64,000 bases of DNA from Vampirovibrio sp. (GTDB lineage Bacteria; Cyanobacteriota; Vampirovibrionia; Vampirovibrionales; JAJTHC01): assembly GCA_050916035.1 (NCBI GenBank), contig CP050876.1, positions 410,372-474,371 on the forward strand, read 5' to 3'. Each line of letters begins with the position of its first letter. Position 1 is the stretch's first letter. The notes beneath the pieces are model-generated. The model did no database searches. It worked only from the letters and a program-made list of their open reading frames with translations, and was not told where the DNA came from. The translations under genes and the position numbers were made by a program. Of the stretch, positions 3,690 through 52,258 are shown in pieces.

Positions 3690-4597
3690 AACACCAACCT
3701 CTTCAAATCCGAAGTCAATTTAGACGCGCCTGCTTCAGTAAGATGATCAAAATCACCAAAATCTTCCCACTCGAACTGTGAATCTGAAAAATAGTTGCAT
3801 AGGGTAATATCTTGCCCCTCAATCATTGAGTACAAAGAAGCAAATAATTCAGATTCATGAGGTAAACAATCCAAATAATCTCTTCTTGCAGGAGGAATTA
3901 AAATAAACACGTCCATCCCTTCCTGCTGGGCCATGTCAATAAAACGAATCAAGTAAGAAAGAACATCATTTTTTCTCTCATTTTCCCTTAAATGTGTTTT
4001 TACTCTCTCTTTGACAGGAGCATTTTGATCAAAATAACGATTTAACCGAACATAGCCTTGTGTATTAACCCTGTCTTTTACCAAAGGAAATCGCTTTTTA
4101 CTTAAGGATTTATACACTTTATAAAGCCCCCCTAGGTTCTGGTCATCAGGCAGTTTATAGTCAATATCATATAAGCATTTAAAATAATTACACACCTCAT
4201 AATCAATTGTTTTTTGGACTTCTAAGCCTGAGGAAAAAACAGAATACACTAAAATAATTCGTTTAAGTTTAAGCGACTTTTTCAATTTATTCATTAAATG
4301 AAAAGAATAATACAGGTCTTGGCTGGTTGAACACAAATTAAAACTATTGGGTGAAAATTGAGGCGTATCAATACCATAAGCCCCATGAGAAGAACCTAAA
4401 ATCAAAGTATCGATCGACGACATATTTTGTTTCAGCATCCAAAATTTTTGGCTTATTTCATGTTCATAAAAACCATGAGACAGAGATTTACCACGAAAAA
4501 AATCAATCCATTTTTGTATCAAAGGGAGTTTCATTCTAATTCCTTTTACGAAAAGAGCAGGACGGTCAATATCAACTGCACTGAATAAAGATCTCAA
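3686..4597 (-). CDS. hypothetical protein, possible SGNH/DltD-like hydrolase (glycan O-acyl modification?)
   Basis: 303-aa ORF at about 33% GC. '[11 protein letters not shown]' resembles the GDS(L) block I and the C-terminal 'DFDHLTEAG' resembles the Asp/His block V. The real start may be the M at 4534. Similarity is only motif-level. Confidence 0.3.
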
Positions 4598-5273
4598 AAA
4601 GAGATATTAAATATGTTTGGTACGATATTAAAATCTTCTTTTTGTTTCGTCAGCCCTAATATTTCGAACACTTTTTCGTCAATAACTGCGTCTGCATAAA
4701 TATATTCCGTTCCTTCTTTTATGGTATTGGTCGCATTTCTAAACTTTTTAAGTAAATTTCTTCGTACCCAACTCATGTGATGGCAAACCACAACATCGTA
4801 CATAAATATATAAGGATGTTTAATGTGATTTAAACACCGTGTAGGATCAACTACAATAGGAGCATTGCTTTGGGTACACAATCTACGTTGAGAGGTTAAT
4901 TGTGAGATAAAAGGAATGGCGTAGTTGGCAATTTCTTTTTGTTGATATTGGGGAGTATTAACGTAATTTCTATGAAAACAAAAGGTGGTATCATAATTGT
5001 GTTTTAAGATTTTTTCTTTGGCCCACTGTATTTCTTCCGCGTGATAGAACTCATCTACATCCATCACAAGTAAATAATTACATTTTGCCTTTCGTACGGC
5101 TTGAACGCCTATATTTCTTTTGAAAAGTTCATTATCTATTGATGTTTTTAAAGCATCAGGTTCAAAGAAAATAATTTCATCAATAAGCTTTTTTTCTTTT
5201 AATGAAAGTAGCAAGTCATAAAGACAAGCCTCTGCAGGTTCTCCATGCCAAGAAGTGCTTTGGTAGACGACAT
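4594..5273 (-). pseudogene. C-terminal fragment of a glycosyltransferase-like gene split by the IS element
   Basis: The track ORF 4594..5289 has its apparent 'MSTLP' start codon inside the IS terminal repeat (ATGTCGACA). There is no native start before Met76. The fragment contains the DxD-like 'YLLVMDVDEF'. It is in frame with the 6118..6350 fragment once the IS and one TA are removed. Confidence 0.5.
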
Positions 5274-5289
5274 TAGGTAGTGTCGACAT

Positions 5290-5736
5290 TTACTTAAGCC
5301 ATAAACAAATAGAAGCAAGATGAACAAAAGACAAATAAGCCACATCTAATTTATCGTAACGGGTTGCCATTCGCCTGAAGTTTTTAAGGTCTTTAAACAA
5401 GTTTTCTACCAAGTGGCGAGCCTTGTAAAGGAAGTAATCGACTTGACGAGGAGCCACCGCATTGCTTTTATTAGGGATGACCACTTCAGCCCCCATGAGG
5501 TGAATCGCCTCAAATATTTGTTCTGAAACATAGCCCTTGTCCGCCAAAACCGCCGTGGCTTCAAGCCCTTTTAACAAAGGGATGGCTTGGGTTGAGTCGG
5601 AAACCTGCCCTGCGGTGACGATAAAGCGAACGGGGTTGCCGTGGCTGTCACAAACGGCGTGAAGCTTGCTCGTATAGCCCCCTGACGATCGTCCTAACGC
5701 TTGTTTTCCGGCACTTTTTTTGCCCCTGCTGAACAC
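5290..5736 (-). CDS. IS transposase OrfB (DDE catalytic part, presumably fused to OrfA by -1 frameshift)
   Basis: 148-aa product identical to ORF 48028..48474. It overlaps orfA by 43 nt in the -1 frame, which is the typical IS427-group organisation. Confidence 0.8.
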   Translation of the reverse strand: MFSRGKKSAGKQALGRSSGGYTSKLHAVCDSHGNPVRFIVTAGQVSDSTQAIPLLKGLEATAVLADKGYVSEQIFEAIHLMGAEVVIPNKSNAVAPRQVDYFLYKARHLVENLFKDLKNFRRMATRYDKLDVAYLSFVHLASICLWLK

Positions 5737-6050
5737 TGGTGGGCGCGAATAATCGTCGAATCAATCATAAGCCATTCGGTATCTGCCGATGTGGCAAGGG
5801 TGTTGAAAATCATTTGCCAAATGCCTTGTTTCGCCCAACGAATGAAGCGCTTGTGAACACTGCTCCACTTGCCGTAATAATAGGGAAGCGACCTCCATCT
5901 TCCCCCGTTTCGCCCCATCCATAATACCGCTTCTACAAAAAGACGGTTGTTTTCGGCAGTGCGTCCTCTATGATGCGACTGACCAGGTAGAGCCTCTTTT
6001 ATCTGATTCCATTGGGCTTTAGACAACTCGTATTGAATATAATCGTTCAT
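5694..6050 (-). CDS. IS transposase OrfA (HTH part)
   Basis: 118-aa product 'MNDYIQYELSKAQWNQIKEALPGQSHHRGRTAENNRLFVEAV...' is identical to ORF 47714..48070. It ends at an A7G slippery run (T-run 5715..5721 on the plus strand). Confidence 0.8.
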   Translation of the reverse strand: MNDYIQYELSKAQWNQIKEALPGQSHHRGRTAENNRLFVEAVLWMGRNGGRWRSLPYYYGKWSSVHKRFIRWAKQGIWQMIFNTLATSADTEWLMIDSTIIRAHQCSAGAKKVPENKR

Positions 6051-6117
6051 AATAAATCCCTCAAAACAACTAGATCTTGGATTTATTATATCATTATTTA
6101 TATGTCGACACTACCTA

Positions 6118-6350
6118 ATATAATGGGCAGAAGATCTCACCGATTGCAAAGAGGCTTCTAACAGTTCCTCTCCGTCAAATAAGCTATAGGTAATCCCTAG
6201 TTTAAAGGTCTCTATCTTTTTAGACAAGGAGAAGAGCTTGATTGACTCTCTTGCATTTCTACGTTTTTTTCTACTGAATGAAACGCAATCAAGATATTGT
6301 GATAGGGTTTTCACCCTTTTTCCCGCTTGAATCATAATCTGTTTTAACAT
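6118..6350 (-). pseudogene. N-terminal fragment of the same IS-split glycosyltransferase-like gene
   Basis: The stop codon of track ORF 6111..6350 (CTA 6111..6113 on the plus strand) lies inside the IS terminal repeat. '...ITYSLFDGEELLEASLQSV' resembles a GT2-type N-terminal motif. The reading frame continues into 5275 after 5276..6117 is removed. Confidence 0.45.
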
Positions 6351-6353
6351 GAG

Positions 6354-6806
6354 CTAATGAATACTCCTTGCGGGATTACCGATAACCGTTGTATGCGCGG
6401 GGACGTCCTTCGTAACCACGGCACCCGCTCCCACCATGGCATGTTGACCAATGGTCACCCCAGGTAAAATCGTGGCATTCGCCCCGATTGAGGCCCCTGC
6501 TTCAATGGTAATGCCTTGCAGCAGAAAGTCTCGATTCCCCGATTGAGGGTACTTGTCATTACAAAAGGTGACATTCGGACCAATAAAGACATCATCCGCA
6601 ATACGAAGCCCATCCCACAACTGCACCCCATTTTTAACCGTGACCCGATTACCCAGTACCACCTTGTTTTCAATCAAGACATGGGCGCAAATGTTACAGT
6701 CTTCCCCAATTTGAGCCTCTGGCAAAATAACACAAAACTGCCAAATACGTGTTCCTTTCCCAATATGGGGGCTTTGTACATCTGACAGAGGATGAATAAA
6801 CGTCAT
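6354..6806 (-). CDS. hexapeptide-repeat sugar N-acetyltransferase (FdtC/WxcM C-domain-like)
   Basis: Left-handed beta-helix hexapeptide repeats are visible ('[49 protein letters not shown]'). It overlaps the FdtA-like gene by 4 bp. Confidence 0.7.
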
Positions 6807-18138: not shown

Positions 18139-19218
18139 ATGGATTTTTTATATCAACCCATGATTGAAGCCTTAACGTTTTTAAAAGGCATTTTAGGGAA
18201 TTATGGTTTCGCTATTATTGTGTTTACCGTACTAATGCGCGTGCTCTTATGGCCTTTAAACACCAAGCAAACCGAGTCCATGAAGGCCATGCAGTCCATG
18301 CAACCCAAGTTAAAGGCCTTGCAAGACCAATATAAAGATGACCCCGCCACCATGCAAAAAGAAGTCATGGCCTTTTACGCGACCAACAAGTTTAATCCCT
18401 TGGCAGGTTGCTTGCCCATGCTTTTGCAAATCCCTATTTTTATTGCCTTATACGGTGCTTTGTCTTCCCCCGCCTTCATGCAGTTGGCTGGGCAAGAACA
18501 CTTTGGATTTATTCAACACTTACACCACACGTGGCGCTCTAATGGGGGAGACCCTTTAGACCATATCATGGCGGTGGACAGTAGTAGTCGTCAGTTTGAA
18601 GCAGGTAAAACCTTAGACGTCTATTTAAAAGGCTTGGATGCCCCTGAACAAATTGCGGTGAAAAGCCTGCGTATGAATGATGTCAAAAAACTCTATGCCG
18701 TGGAGCCTCAGCCCCCGATTGCGGGCAAACCCCTGCACTTCACCATTCACCAAAGTGACTTAGGCTTTGATGATGCCTACAGCAAAAACATTGTTAAGCT
18801 TCAGGGAAGCGTGATGAATGTAGCCTCTAAAGAATTAGAAACGCTTAGCTTCACCCCAGCACAGGGTGCCACGGCCTTTCAAAGTGAAATTCCTACGCGA
18901 AAAACAGAAACCACCTACCATTACGGGGTACTGGCTTTAATTGTGATTTACGGCTTACTGAGTTGGGCGTATCAGTGGTCTATGACTTTGATGTCTGGAA
19001 CACCCACGCCTGCAGAAGGGCCACAAGCCTTGATGAACAAGTTTATGCCGCTGCTCTTTGCCGTTTTAATGTTGATTATTCAGATTCCTGCAGGCGTCAT
19101 GCTTTATTTGGTGACCACCATGGTCATGATGCTTGTTCAGAACTTGTATCTGTATAAGAAAAACCCACCCACGTTGAGCTCGCCTGACGCCAAGCTTCAA
19201 GTGGTGGATGTAAATTAA
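18139..19218 (+). CDS. yidC: membrane protein insertase YidC/Oxa1 family (short form)
   Basis: 'GNYGFAIIVFTVLMRVLLWPLNTKQTESMKAMQSMQPKLKALQDQYKDDP' is the conserved YidC core. An AAGGAG ribosome-binding site is present. Confidence 0.85.
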   Translation: MDFLYQPMIEALTFLKGILGNYGFAIIVFTVLMRVLLWPLNTKQTESMKAMQSMQPKLKALQDQYKDDPATMQKEVMAFYATNKFNPLAGCLPMLLQIPIFIALYGALSSPAFMQLAGQEHFGFIQHLHHTWRSNGGDPLDHIMAVDSSSRQFEAGKTLDVYLKGLDAPEQIAVKSLRMNDVKKLYAVEPQPPIAGKPLHFTIHQSDLGFDDAYSKNIVKLQGSVMNVASKELETLSFTPAQGATAFQSEIPTRKTETTYHYGVLALIVIYGLLSWAYQWSMTLMSGTPTPAEGPQALMNKFMPLLFAVLMLIIQIPAGVMLYLVTTMVMMLVQNLYLYKKNPPTLSSPDAKLQVVDVN

Positions 19219-19287
19219 TGTAACAAAGGGGCCCCTTGCCCGCACCTTTAAAAGATGCGTCGTCTTGTTTACTTGAGCTAATACATT

Positions 19288-19320
19288 ATGCTCCCTCACC
19301 AAATTGAGGGAGCATTTTTT
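19288..19320 (+). terminator. Rho-independent terminator of yidC
   Basis: ATGCTCCCTCA-CCAAAT-TGAGGGAGCAT followed by TTTTTT. Confidence 0.65.
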
Positions 19321-19327
19321 AGAGTAG

Positions 19328-19550
19328 ACGTCAACGCAAAAATGCGAGGCTTCCGAGACATTTTGCGGACGTCGTGGCCGTAAATGATGCGAGGAGGTGG
19401 GGATTGAGGGGGGATTTTCAAGGGGGGACGAAGGGGAGGAGAAACGCAATGCGTCCTTCCCCGTCCCCCCTTGAACGGATTTAGAGGTGTCGGAGAACCT
19501 TTTTCCGTAAAAAGGTCTCTGACGGCACAAGCTAAAAATGCAGAGAAAAA
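19328..19550. repeat. structured intergenic repeat, copy A (related copy at 51785..52040)
   Basis: Shared blocks are GACGTCAACGCA, TTTTGCGGACG, a G-run/C-run hairpin (19417..19475) and a second hairpin GGTGTCGGAGAACCTTTTTCCGTAAAAAGGTCTCTGACGGCAC. The distal roughly 75 bp are near-identical between copies. Confidence 0.6.
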
Positions 19551-19560
19551 GGCCCTTGGA

Positions 19561-20790
19561 CTAAAGCCAAGCGTCACAAAGGTGCATTAAAAGCCCGCGC
19601 GCGATTTCATCCTTAGGCGCTTTAGCCAAAAAATGGGGGGCCTGTGTTTCATCGGTCCATAGTAGCGTCATTTCATTGTCAGGCTGATGAAAGGCAATAT
19701 CTTCGCGCCCAATGGCATTCACCGCCAAGGCATCCGCCCCCTTACGGCGTAGTTTTTCATACAGGGGGGTGTAATCTCCCGTTTCACTTTCCGCGGCAAA
19801 GCCCAAGACTTTTTGATGCGGTTGCTTCATGGCGCACGCTTCTTTTAAAATATCAGGGGTGATTTCTAAATCCAGCGTGTAATGAGCACAGGCTTCGCTT
19901 TTCTTAATTTTACCCGCTTGGGGAGATCGAGGTCTAAAATCACTGACGGCAGCCGCTTTTAAAAGCCAATCCTGCTGAGCAAACGCCTTTAAAACGGCGG
20001 TTCTCATTAAATCAACGCTGGGGCAATACTGCACCTGATACGGCCTACTTTCAAAAGCATCCAGAGGGGTGGCGCTGATCAGCGTGACGTCGGCTCCCAT
20101 GGCGTAGGCTTCATCTGCCAAGGCCCGTCCCATTTTTCCACTGGAGCGATTCGTCAGCACGCGTGCAGGGTCTAAGGCTTCTTGCGTGCCCCCTGCGGTG
20201 ACCAGTATTTTTTTCCCCACCAAGCGATGAGCCTGAGGATGCAAGGCTTTATACAAGGTCAGTAAAGTCCATGCATCAGGCGCCAAATGCCCTGACCCTG
20301 TTTCCCCACAAGCCAATAAGCCTTCAACAGGCGGCACCATAAACACATGAGGCAAGGCGCTTAACAGATCTAAATTGCGTTGTGTTAAGGGATGTTCCCA
20401 CATACGGCGATTCATGGCAGGGGCAATCACAATGGGCTTCGCATCAAAACACAGGGCCGTTGCGGTGAGTAAATCCCCCGTTAATCCTTGTGCCAGTTGA
20501 GCCAAACTATTCGCCGTAGCGGGGTAAATCAGGAGTGCATCCCCCCATTGCGCCAAACTAATATGTAGCGGTACGCCTGCTTCATCCACCGCGTGATGTT
20601 CCGCCGTCGCCTTTTTTTTACTGAGGCTCGACAAGGTTAAGGCGGTGATAAACTGAGGCGCTTCTTGGGAAAGAATGGGATGAACCGCTTCCGCTCCCAA
20701 TCGCTGAAGGGTGCGAATCAAATCCGCACTTTTATAGGCCGCAACACTTGCACAAACGCCTAAAACAATACGGTTACCGTGAAAAAACAT
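19561..20790 (-). CDS. coaBC: bifunctional phosphopantothenoylcysteine decarboxylase / phosphopantothenate-cysteine ligase
   Basis: An N-terminal flavoprotein domain ('RIVLGVCASVAAYKSADLIRTLQ') is followed by a CoaB domain. Length is 409 aa. Confidence 0.9.
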   Translation of the reverse strand: MFFHGNRIVLGVCASVAAYKSADLIRTLQRLGAEAVHPILSQEAPQFITALTLSSLSKKKATAEHHAVDEAGVPLHISLAQWGDALLIYPATANSLAQLAQGLTGDLLTATALCFDAKPIVIAPAMNRRMWEHPLTQRNLDLLSALPHVFMVPPVEGLLACGETGSGHLAPDAWTLLTLYKALHPQAHRLVGKKILVTAGGTQEALDPARVLTNRSSGKMGRALADEAYAMGADVTLISATPLDAFESRPYQVQYCPSVDLMRTAVLKAFAQQDWLLKAAAVSDFRPRSPQAGKIKKSEACAHYTLDLEITPDILKEACAMKQPHQKVLGFAAESETGDYTPLYEKLRRKGADALAVNAIGREDIAFHQPDNEMTLLWTDETQAPHFLAKAPKDEIARGLLMHLCDAWL

Positions 20791-47551: not shown

Positions 47552-47713
47552 ATACGTCTGGTGTTTTAAATACGACCCCCCTTTATCCTTCCGTTGTGGG
47601 ATTCCGAATTAATATATCTGCAGGACGCCACATTTTCTCGATATACTAGGTAGTGTCGACATATAAATAATGATATAATAAATCCAAGATCTAGTTGTTT
47701 TGAGGGATTTATT

Positions 47714-48070
47714 ATGAACGATTATATTCAATACGAGTTGTCTAAAGCCCAATGGAATCAGATAAAAGAGGCTCTACCTGGTCAGTCGCATCATAGAGGA
47801 CGCACTGCCGAAAACAACCGTCTTTTTGTAGAAGCAGTATTATGGATGGGGCGAAACGGGGGAAGATGGAGGTCGCTTCCCTATTATTACGGCAAGTGGA
47901 GCAGTGTTCACAAGCGCTTCATTCGTTGGGCGAAACAAGGCATTTGGCAAATGATTTTCAACACCCTTGCCACATCGGCAGATACCGAATGGCTTATGAT
48001 TGATTCGACGATTATTCGCGCCCACCAGTGTTCAGCAGGGGCAAAAAAAGTGCCGGAAAACAAGCGTTAG
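47714..48070 (+). CDS. IS transposase OrfA
   Basis: Identical to the 5694..6050 product. Confidence 0.8.
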   Translation: MNDYIQYELSKAQWNQIKEALPGQSHHRGRTAENNRLFVEAVLWMGRNGGRWRSLPYYYGKWSSVHKRFIRWAKQGIWQMIFNTLATSADTEWLMIDSTIIRAHQCSAGAKKVPENKR

Positions 48071-48474
48071 GACGATCGTCAGGGGGCTATACGAGCAAGC
48101 TTCACGCCGTTTGTGACAGCCACGGCAACCCCGTTCGCTTTATCGTCACCGCAGGGCAGGTTTCCGACTCAACCCAAGCCATCCCTTTGTTAAAAGGGCT
48201 TGAAGCCACGGCGGTTTTGGCGGACAAGGGCTATGTTTCAGAACAAATATTTGAGGCGATTCACCTCATGGGGGCTGAAGTGGTCATCCCTAATAAAAGC
48301 AATGCGGTGGCTCCTCGTCAAGTCGATTACTTCCTTTACAAGGCTCGCCACTTGGTAGAAAACTTGTTTAAAGACCTTAAAAACTTCAGGCGAATGGCAA
48401 CCCGTTACGATAAATTAGATGTGGCTTATTTGTCTTTTGTTCATCTTGCTTCTATTTGTTTATGGCTTAAGTAA
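48028..48474 (+). CDS. IS transposase OrfB (DDE), -1 frame relative to OrfA
   Basis: Identical to the 5290..5736 product. It overlaps the A7G slippery site. Confidence 0.8.
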   Translation: MFSRGKKSAGKQALGRSSGGYTSKLHAVCDSHGNPVRFIVTAGQVSDSTQAIPLLKGLEATAVLADKGYVSEQIFEAIHLMGAEVVIPNKSNAVAPRQVDYFLYKARHLVENLFKDLKNFRRMATRYDKLDVAYLSFVHLASICLWLK

Positions 48475-48598
48475 ATGTCGACACTACCTAAGTTTAACGT
48501 TAAAACATGTAACAATCTATTCAAGCATTTTAAAAAAGTAACCGACCCATTTAAAGACCTTCATTTCCATCACAAACCCTTTCCAGAGGAGCTTCATC

Positions 48599-51698: not shown

Positions 51699-51784
51699 TG
51701 CTTTAAAATCCTTTTCAACAAGAACACCAAAATATCGATGAGGTTTTTTCTGTATTATTTTTTAGATACAAGCTACACCAACCG

Positions 51785-52040
51785 ACGTCAACGCACTAAA
51801 TCCGAGCGGGTGAGCGAATGGCGAATCCCCTGCGGATTTTGCGGACGGCCGACGTGAGGGGGTGGAGCAAGCGAAAAGGATGAGAAGGGGGGGAGGATTT
51901 TCAAGGAGGGGGGCAAGAGAAGGAGAGCCGCAACAATTTCCTTTTCTTTCCCCCCCCTCCTTGAACGGATTTAGAGGTGTCAGAGACCTTTTTCCGTGAA
52001 AAGGTCTCTGACGTCACCAGCTCAAAATGAAGCGAGGAAT
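51785..52040. repeat. structured intergenic repeat, copy B (related to 19328..19550)
   Basis: Same block order as copy A. Hairpin 1 is TTCAAGGAGGGGGG...CCCCCCCTCCTTGAA (51900..51965). Hairpin 2 is GGTGTCAGAGACCTTTTTCCGTGAAAAGGTCTCTGACGTCACC (51976..52018). Confidence 0.6.
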
Positions 52041-52258
52041 CCAAAAATAACACCAAGTGACGATTTTAGCTAAAAGACAAAACACTACACGTTTGCTTCT
52101 ACAAGTAACCTAAATTGTTACAATTCATCACCCCTCAACGGCCTCAACGCGTAGGGTCTTCTTGAACTCTTGAGATTTGACCCAATACGCCTTCTTTTTA
52201 TGCTAAGCTAGCAAGCGTCACACCCCTAATCCCTACTAATCTGAGTCTTATTTTTCTT

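Follow-up and report, generated by a model that had tools for sequence, protein, structure and literature searches.

The 64,000 nt stretch of DNA analyzed here (the window) carries two copies of a repeat which, judged by sequence searches, represents a previously undescribed family found only in the Vampirovibrionales, non-photosynthetic relatives of the cyanobacteria. Selection acts on the folded plus strand of these repeats, and the selected form is most likely RNA, the alternative being a folded plus strand of DNA. We consider it reasonably probable that they are lineage-restricted, non-coding, modular and non-autonomous mobile elements of 200–440 nt, the selected plus-strand fold of which is transcribed and offers a handle to a trans-acting factor. 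The Vampirovibrionales, a sister lineage of the cyanobacteria, have hardly been studied, and most of what is known of them comes from metagenome-assembled genomes (MAGs). It is rare for a dispersed bacterial repeat to have the fold of one strand, including a pseudoknot, clearly under selection and for its copies also to show signs of insertion, and this combination points to mobilization or function through a single-stranded, probably RNA, form.

Two Copies of the Repeat in the Window

Copies A (approximately 19288–19550) and B (approximately 51775–52042) are built of the same blocks in the same order, as the first-pass annotation of this DNA had described. The sequence GACGTCAACGCA (19327–19338 in copy A and 51784–51795 in copy B) is followed in both by TTTTGCGGACG and GGATTTTCAAGGRGGGG, and the copies have a core of roughly 75 nt in common. 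Their mean column identity is 77% over the pairwise alignment. The 19-mer GAACGGATTTAGAGGTGTC has exactly two matches in the window, where 0.02 are expected by chance, and none of 100 shuffled sequences gave two. A covariance model of the core scored the window copies at 98.9 and 92.7 bits and, with the reverse-strand echo of the palindromic hairpin set aside, the next unrelated match in the window at 13.7 bits (E = 0.24). Only two matches thus score above 13.7 bits, and these two, which lie on the plus strand, are the sole copies in the window. The extent originally assigned to the element was too short, as a 5' leader lying upstream (19288–19321 in copy A) is probably also carried by it. The positions of all modules are given in Table 1.

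According to Pfam, copy A is flanked by YidC (60KD_IMP) upstream and a convergent CoaBC downstream, and copy B by a Cys/Met PLP-dependent enzyme upstream and RsgA downstream. Both copies had been placed just after the terminator of a neighboring gene; the flanking genes were correctly named, but the terminator at copy A is doubtful, its hairpin having the look of a part of the element. The earlier view that there is no convincing ORF holds, in that the two minus-strand ORFs overlapping copy A have no Pfam match and the calls at 19066–19577 are spurious. Recognition of the family improves annotation in this respect, given that the repeat both breaks assemblies and yields spurious ORF calls of this kind.

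Table 1. Modules of the two window copies, with positions in the window and the basis of each assignment.
Feature	Position	Strand	Basis or remark
Copy A, 5' leader: 11-bp hairpin and T-run	19288..19321	+	terminator-like site; holds CTCACCAA at 19295-19302
Copy A, 5' hairpin P1 (GACGTC-AA-CGCA ... TGCG-GACGTC)	19327..19373	+	alignment of 21 copies
Copy A, purine-rich connector, several G runs	19374..19416	+	site of the 115-nt extra module in long members (alignment)
Copy A, hairpin 1, long, purine arm / pyrimidine arm	19417..19475	+	covariation
Copy A, pseudoknot 5' strand CGGA	19476..19479	+	pairs with loop UCCG at 19504-19507
Copy A, linker TTTAGAGGTGT, mostly single-stranded	19480..19490	+	identical in 35/35 aligned copies
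Copy A, hairpin 2 (GUCGGAGAACCUUUUU / AAAAAGGUCUCUGAC)	19489..19523	+	loop 19504-19507 is the pseudoknot 3' strand
Copy A, 3' tail (GGCACAAGCTAAAAATGCAGAGA...)	19524..19550	+	weaker match to consensus ACCAGCUnAAAAnGAAGCGAGnAAUCYA
Copy B, 5' leader motif ACACCAACC	51775..51783	+	common to L008, L012, L017 and L018; true 5' end may lie up to ~50 nt further upstream
Copy B, 5' hairpin P1, variant with 18-nt loop insertion	51784..51849	+	alignment, fold
Copy B, purine-rich connector	51850..51899	+	alignment
Copy B, hairpin 1, variant rich in G·U on the plus strand	51900..51965	+	fold, covariation
Copy B, pseudoknot 5' strand CGGA (51966-51969), then linker TTTAGAGGTGT (51970-51980)	51966..51980	+	
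Copy B, hairpin 2 (GUCAGAGACCUUUU / AAAAGGUCUCUGAC)	51979..52012	+	loop 51993-51996 (UCCG) is the pseudoknot 3' strand
Copy B, 3' tail GTCACCAGCTCAAAATGAAGCGAGGAATCC, then A-rich run	52013..52042	+	alignment

Modular Organization of the Family

Alignments of 21 full copies (A3) and of 35 3' cores (A2) reveal elements without an ORF, with variable 5' modules and a constant 3' domain. In 5'-to-3' order, they consist of the leader, the hairpin P1, a purine-rich connector, hairpin 1, four to five bases, the linker, hairpin 2 and the tail. The leader motif YTCACCAA lies at most 70 nt upstream in 9 of the 21 full copies and occurs in 2.6% of random 70-nt windows. Its form CTCACCAA recurs upstream of unrelated copies, and because the hairpin and T-run on the yidC side of copy A carry this recurrent motif, they probably belong to the element. 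In the related contig L033, the same leader hairpin precedes the element despite an extra ORF between the hairpin and yidC.

P1 occurs in two main variants, one of them with an 18-nt insertion in the loop (as in copy B), and the connector carries the additional 115-nt module in seven loci. Hairpin 1 is about 60 nt long and has at least four sequence variants, while the bases that precede the linker are CGGA, CGCA or CCGCC. The linker itself, UUUAGAGGUGU, is near-invariant, the only exception being a diverged copy (L029:458-532) with UUUGGGGGUUU. The tail is 30–40 nt in length, with the consensus ACCAGCTnAAAAnGAAGCGAGnAATCYA. In four copies (L002, L003, L014 and L015) the 30–60 nt after the tail contain a further module, GGCTTAGGCTTTCTGTATGATACTGAGGA, which includes an extended -10-like TGTATGAT and GAGGA, and which may be either a small repeat in its own right or an additional, optional part of the 3' end.

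Partial and composite copies also occur. The 5' half is absent or substituted by other sequence in L007, L009, L015 and L025a, a second partial 3' module lies in tandem in L013, L016, L017 and L019, and fragments without a 5' part or in the form of tandem 3' modules are found in L007, L009, L013, L016, L017 and L019. Several of those without a 5' part have the common 3' tail as their end. Orientation relative to the neighboring genes is mixed, and both tandem and inverted fragments occur. The tandem 3' modules of L016 and L017 have a period of 86 nt and were considered as a CRISPR-like array, a possibility that was rejected on reading the sequence, as the 'spacer' is the conserved tail.

Conserved Fold and the Strand Under Selection

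Each copy had been said to contain a long hairpin, which corresponds to hairpin 1 (19417–19475 in copy A and 51900–51965 in copy B), and a near-perfect second hairpin of 17 bp. Both are real, but the second (19489–19523 and 51979–52012) has 14–15 bp, including two wobble pairs; RNAalifold gives GUYGGAGA(A)CCUUUU/AAAAGGUCUCUGAC. When 40 named pairs were examined in 35 copies, 94.8% of the cells could pair, and this fell to 50–68% if the partner was slid by one to three columns. Changes on both sides were seen in 12 of the 40 pairs, with a covariation score reached by 0 of 500 shuffles; as the copies are interrelated and may exchange sequence, this covariation amounts to about four to five distinct variant classes and not to 35 independent events. 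The earlier proposal of selection on structure is supported by clear compensatory changes in the hairpins and the pseudoknot, and the selection can be assigned to the plus strand.

In hairpin 1 (14+8 pairs), about 90–95% of the cells are paired and nine pairs have changed on both sides. At its base, C-G is replaced by U-A in seven copies; other compensatory changes among the 40 pairs are G-C to A-U in 10 copies, and A-U to G-C and C-G to G-C in 13–14 copies. Hairpin 2 has 99.6% of its cells paired, and a U-A pair is replaced by G-C in 12 copies. The core pairs of P1 form in nearly all of the 21 full copies, and one of them is A-U in 15 copies and C-G in five. With this one compensatory switch as its evidence, P1 has weaker support than the 3' domain. 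The diverged copy L029:458-532, found only by the covariance model (43 bits), has kept hairpin 1, hairpin 2 and the pseudoknot, and it adds three to four more pairs changed on both sides. Hairpin 2 was also compared with domain V of group II introns, an identity that was dismissed: it has the 34 nt but neither the AGC triad nor the bulge, and there was no match to the Rfam intron model.

Base pairs also form between the hairpin 2 loop and the 4–5 nt that precede the linker. Four states of this pairing are present and all are complementary (CGGA/UCCG, CGCA/UGCG, CCGCC/GGCGG and CCGC/GCGG), with the register shifted by one base in the CCGCC type. In a fixed register 87.9% of the cells pair, a value that drops to 70% or less on sliding, and none of 500 shuffles reached the score. 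The pairing is that of an H-type pseudoknot, in place of which a mutually exclusive hairpin may form.

Non-Watson-Crick cells were used to discriminate between the strands. There are 125 cells with G·U on the plus strand and 28 with A·C (that is, G·U on the other strand), and for hairpin 2 alone the counts are 56 and 2. At one position of hairpin 2, copy B has A-U, and the 34 other copies of the 35 all have G·U. The neighboring position has U·G, C-G or U-A, all of which pair on the plus strand, whereas on the opposite strand 22 copies have a mismatch there. This bias of the wobble pairs identifies the plus strand as the selected molecule. The predicted folding energy is also better for the plus strand in 21 of 21 copies, by 7–33 kcal/mol, but shuffled controls show this advantage to be largely one of composition; with both strands at a z of about -6, folding energy does not pick the strand, and the wobble-pair counts were relied upon.

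From the connector into the 5' arm of hairpin 1 (19385–19445 and 51858–51918), the plus strand has three or four G runs, each four to seven nt long, a pattern that could allow a G-quadruplex to compete with hairpin 1.

Distribution of the Family

The exact 19-mer TTGAACGGATTTAGAGGTG was used to scan one genome per GTDB species, and 21 loci were retrieved, all of them in three Vampirovibrionales MAGs (16 in JBIJBR01, three in JAJTHC01 and two in JBKDRU01), to which the window genome does not belong. Several of these loci are cut by a contig end, as expected of a repeat that breaks assemblies. Because an exact 19-mer was required, genomes with variant linkers, such as those present in metagenomes, would have been missed, and the true distribution may be wider than the scan shows. 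A scan of lake metagenomes that required only the 3' hairpin gave 11 more contigs with 12 copies, and further copies were reached through YidC homologs in contigs L033, L034 and L035. A search for the core had been proposed as a means of counting copies; these scans show that the two in the window do not stand alone, and, with the metagenome copies, dozens are now recognized across at least five related genomes. The family is nonetheless patchy, since three related genomes, of which 88 kb were searched with the covariance model, gave no copy. Viral contigs were considered as hosts and discounted, as their twelve 17-mer matches are chance occurrences and the covariance model finds no copy there.

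A sensitive distant-mode blastn search of plasmids and phages gave no match. The window has no match at the gathering threshold in Rfam 15, the families of which include ribozymes, omega-RNA-like motifs, 6S RNA and group II intron domains; a permissive Rfam search of both copies retrieved only sub-threshold microRNA hairpin models, and the same search of six other loci gave nothing but one tRNA and one 16S rRNA end. Literature searches likewise returned no description of this repeat family. The Rfam scan recommended by the first-pass annotation, and the accompanying search for known elements, thus leave the repeat without a counterpart in Rfam, plasmids or phages.

Insertion Sites and Flanking Repeats

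Two contigs, L019 (JAJTHC01) and L021 (JBKDRU01), are orthologous on both sides of a repeat locus (94% and 83% identity). A segment consisting of a full element and a 3' fragment (L019:6795-7228) has no counterpart at the orthologous L021 site, and the 14-mer AGCATAATACAAAA, present once in L021, is found on both sides of the insert in L019. The copy in L006 has a perfect flanking repeat of 23 nt, which none of 60 shuffled flanks could match. In both L006 and L019 the downstream repeat starts 36–39 nt after hairpin 2, which fixes the 3' end of the element, and the upstream repeat lies 37–53 nt before P1, which makes the leader part of the element. The ends defined in this way carry no inverted repeat beyond 3 nt. 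Flanking repeats of the other copies are not significant, including a 12-of-15 match at copy B, so that clear examples come from 2 of about 20 full copies, together with one clean pair of filled and empty sites. At the site filled in L021, the relatives L056, L059 and L060 have unrelated sequence and the exact boundaries are not readable.

Copy B is present at the same site in L008 (JBIJBR01), which has 91–94% DNA identity to the window. The L008 ortholog has a strongly diverged tail and has moved closer to the JBIJBR01 genome consensus, a change suggestive of concerted evolution between the copies. No empty site was found for copy A, given that a 97%-identical relative (L033) is also filled and more distant relatives are without synteny, nor for the L006 copy, for which contig L054 is also filled. 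We infer that both window copies are old, fixed insertions. An all-against-all BLASTP comparison of 134 flanking ORFs detected no recurrent family, and as no protein family recurs beside the copies, the element is regarded as non-autonomous.

The motif TTGTTACA was seen in L006 (67–89 and 483–505), in the flanks of L005, L010 and L014, and in the window at 52113–52125. In L006 it lies inside the 23-nt duplication, overlapping the promoter-like -35 region of the downstream gene, and it may be either a sequence favored for insertion or a common promoter element.

Comparison with Known Repeats and Mobile Elements

The first-pass annotation had offered 'MITE-like' as one description of the repeat, and the evidence of insertion agrees with this, as do the small size, the non-coding sequence, the multiple copies and the insertion polymorphism. 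Like bacterial MITEs such as Correia/NEMIS, ERIC, RUP and the cyanobacterial Nezha, the elements are short, have no ORF, are dispersed between genes and break assemblies. MITEs, however, are recognized by inverted repeats at their termini, matching those of a parent IS, and by target duplications that are short and constant in length, whereas the ends of the L006 and L019 elements have no inverted repeat longer than 3 nt in common and their duplications are long and differ in size (14 and 23 nt), with none at most copies. Lacking terminal inverted repeats and a recurrent neighboring gene, the family does not represent a classical MITE. REP/BIME sequences and the palindrome elements related to IS200/IS605 also lack inverted termini and contain hairpins of significance on a single strand, but they are either palindromes of 20–40 nt, usually arranged for REP/BIME in inverted clusters and associated with a gene for RAYT (REP-associated tyrosine transposase), or have similar hairpins at both ends, and they make no target duplication. 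The Vampirovibrionales repeat differs in its unit of 200–440 nt with ordered, distinct modules, its unrelated ends (P1 and hairpin 2), its pseudoknot and the duplications at two copies. An integron attC site, an imperfect palindrome of 57–141 nt at a cassette boundary beside an integron integrase or cassette array, was rejected from context and architecture, the neighbors being housekeeping genes (yidC/coaBC and metY/rsgA) and not cassettes, and the element being longer and multi-domain. With no match to a plasmid or phage either, and with termini unlike those of the IS5-family element in the window, the repeat does not look like the fragment of a known IS or attC site that the annotation had mentioned as a possible outcome.

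In its organization the family most resembles modular repeats such as BOX of Streptococcus pneumoniae, and it would fall among the dispersed structured repeats of bacteria. BOX is likewise intergenic, multi-copy, non-coding and modular, with a stable predicted transcript structure and no internal transposase, but it has no sequence relationship to the present family and occurs in another host lineage. To what is known of BOX, the Vampirovibrionales repeat adds a covariation-supported pseudoknot, a near-invariant linker, a filled and empty site, and long flanking repeats.

Eukaryotic SINEs and the structured 3' UTRs of R2-type elements offer a resemblance only, which extends to a structured 3' domain on the sense strand, a variable or truncated 5' part, chimeric tandem copies and long, unequal duplications (here the two flanking repeats), and several copies have an A-rich run after the 3' end. 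They differ in that the present family has no known reverse transcriptase partner and no regular poly(A) tail. The omega RNAs of TnpB/IscB and the bridge RNAs of IS110 are similar in being structured non-coding RNAs at the end of a mobile element, and omega RNAs also have pseudoknots, but there is no tnpB, iscB or IS110 gene beside any copy and no Rfam match; these systems are not known to create duplications of 14–23 nt.

Possible Modes of Propagation and Function

If the family consists of mobile elements, as we think probable, the plus strand would be transcribed, and the folded 3' domain would be the handle for a factor encoded elsewhere in the genome. This factor would copy or move the element into AT-rich intergenic DNA via a single-stranded, probably RNA, form, and propagation would leave behind long and unequal target duplications, copies without the usual 5' part and chimeric tandem copies. 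Neither a sigma-70-like promoter nor an intrinsic terminator on the plus strand was found bracketing the fold, and the strong conservation of the 3' domain across genomes would equally fit an RNA useful to the host. Such an RNA could belong to a multigene family of trans-acting or protein-sequestering sRNAs, with the linker UUUAGAGGUGU as a functional single-stranded site and with copies produced by duplication or recombination and not by transposition. We regard this as unlikely, even though several observations would agree with it: covariation of the RNA type, the wobble bias to the plus strand, a linker that is invariant in 35 copies from several genomes and contains a Shine-Dalgarno-like GAGGUG, a 3' domain that has hardly changed between genomes with just 80% identity in YidC, and the presence of copy B at the same site in two genomes. 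Apart from the missing promoter and terminator, it is opposed by 5' parts that are heterogeneous, truncated or replaced, by tandem or inverted fragments, by the mixed orientation relative to neighbor genes, by the filled and empty pair and the long flanking repeats, and by the absence of the family from the 88 kb of three related genomes. Should it indeed act for the host, the RNA would be a new one, structured and multicopy, and its conserved loop would resemble a ribosome-binding site.

Retention in cis was considered as well, in the form of a domesticated and no longer mobile element, acting as an RNA-stabilizing 3'-UTR structure, transcription barrier or insulator in the manner proposed for ERIC, BOX or Correia. 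Many copies are downstream of a co-oriented gene or between convergent genes, and the leader of copy A is a good hairpin with a T-run directly after yidC, but several other copies are divergent from, or upstream of, their neighbors, hairpins 1 and 2 are not followed by a T-run, and a conserved pseudoknot with an invariant linker exceeds the needs of stabilization or termination. We therefore rate this explanation as very improbable. Two routes of movement are more specific. A non-autonomous ssDNA transposon or REP-like derivative, moved by an HUH enzyme (IS200/IS605 TnpA or RAYT) and with the plus DNA strand as the selected fold, would be in keeping with the lack of terminal inverted repeats, with strand-specific hairpins tolerant of G·T, and with tandem and truncated copies, which are also known in rolling-circle-type elements. 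Elements of the HUH type insert beside a fixed tetra- or pentanucleotide without target duplication, whereas repeats of 14 and 23 nt flank two copies here; moreover, the hairpins at the 5' and 3' ends have no sequence relationship, the surroundings of the copies contain no recurrent tnpA, tnpB or RAYT-like gene, there is no match to the IS605-associated RNA families of Rfam, and a 60-nt hairpin with a loop-linker pseudoknot is not known to be part of end recognition by HUH enzymes. This route is accordingly given a low probability.

The other route, retroposition by a SINE-like bacterial element, is also rather improbable in our estimation. A reverse transcriptase from another locus of the genome would recognize the 3' domain with its hairpins and pseudoknot and would copy the plus-strand transcript into DNA at a nick in an AT-rich target. 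This would account for selection on RNA structure that is confined to the 3' domain, for heterogeneous or truncated 5' ends, for a full copy and a 3' fragment inside one pair of repeats (L019), and for unequal duplications of 14 and 23 nt. The combination of features resembles retroposition more closely than known mechanisms of DNA transposition, on the basis of very few events. No SINE-like class of retroposon is known to be established in bacteria, and an RNA-copying route, if true, would make the family a kind of mobile element not established there.

Additional Features Near the Copies

Several of the contigs carry other small features near the repeat. In L033, where YidC is 97% identical, an ORF of 97 aa without a Pfam match (1296–1589) lies between yidC and the counterpart of copy A, and the roughly 330-nt segment that contains it is missing from the window. 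Downstream of yidC in L034 (YidC 80% identical), at 4160–4320, there are about eight tandem repeats of 21–22 nt (TTTCYGACACACGAAA...) that look like iterons, i.e., tandem protein-binding repeats. L019 has an extra hairpin of about 40 nt (TTTACCCCTTCTCCTAAAGGAAGAAGGGGTAA) at 6706–6780, adjoining the insertion site and absent from L021, which suggests a second, smaller palindromic insert in these genomes. Two members of the repeat family are arranged head-to-head in L025 (69–902 and 1097–1158), close to a 16S rRNA gene and some 200 nt away from its 3' end, either downstream of the gene or in its spacer.

The window also contains an 850-nt insertion sequence of the IS5 family, at 5273–6122 and 47642–48491, the two copies being inverted and 100% identical. 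It has inverted termini of 26 nt, and its two ORFs, one with DUF4096 and the other with a DDE transposase domain, overlap and are probably joined by a frameshift. An origin of the repeat as a derivative of this element was rejected, as the IS5 termini (ATTAGGTAGTGTCGAC...) are unrelated to the repeat and absent from it. The IS5 copy at 47642–48491 is absent from the orthologous site in L008 and is, therefore, a recent insertion.
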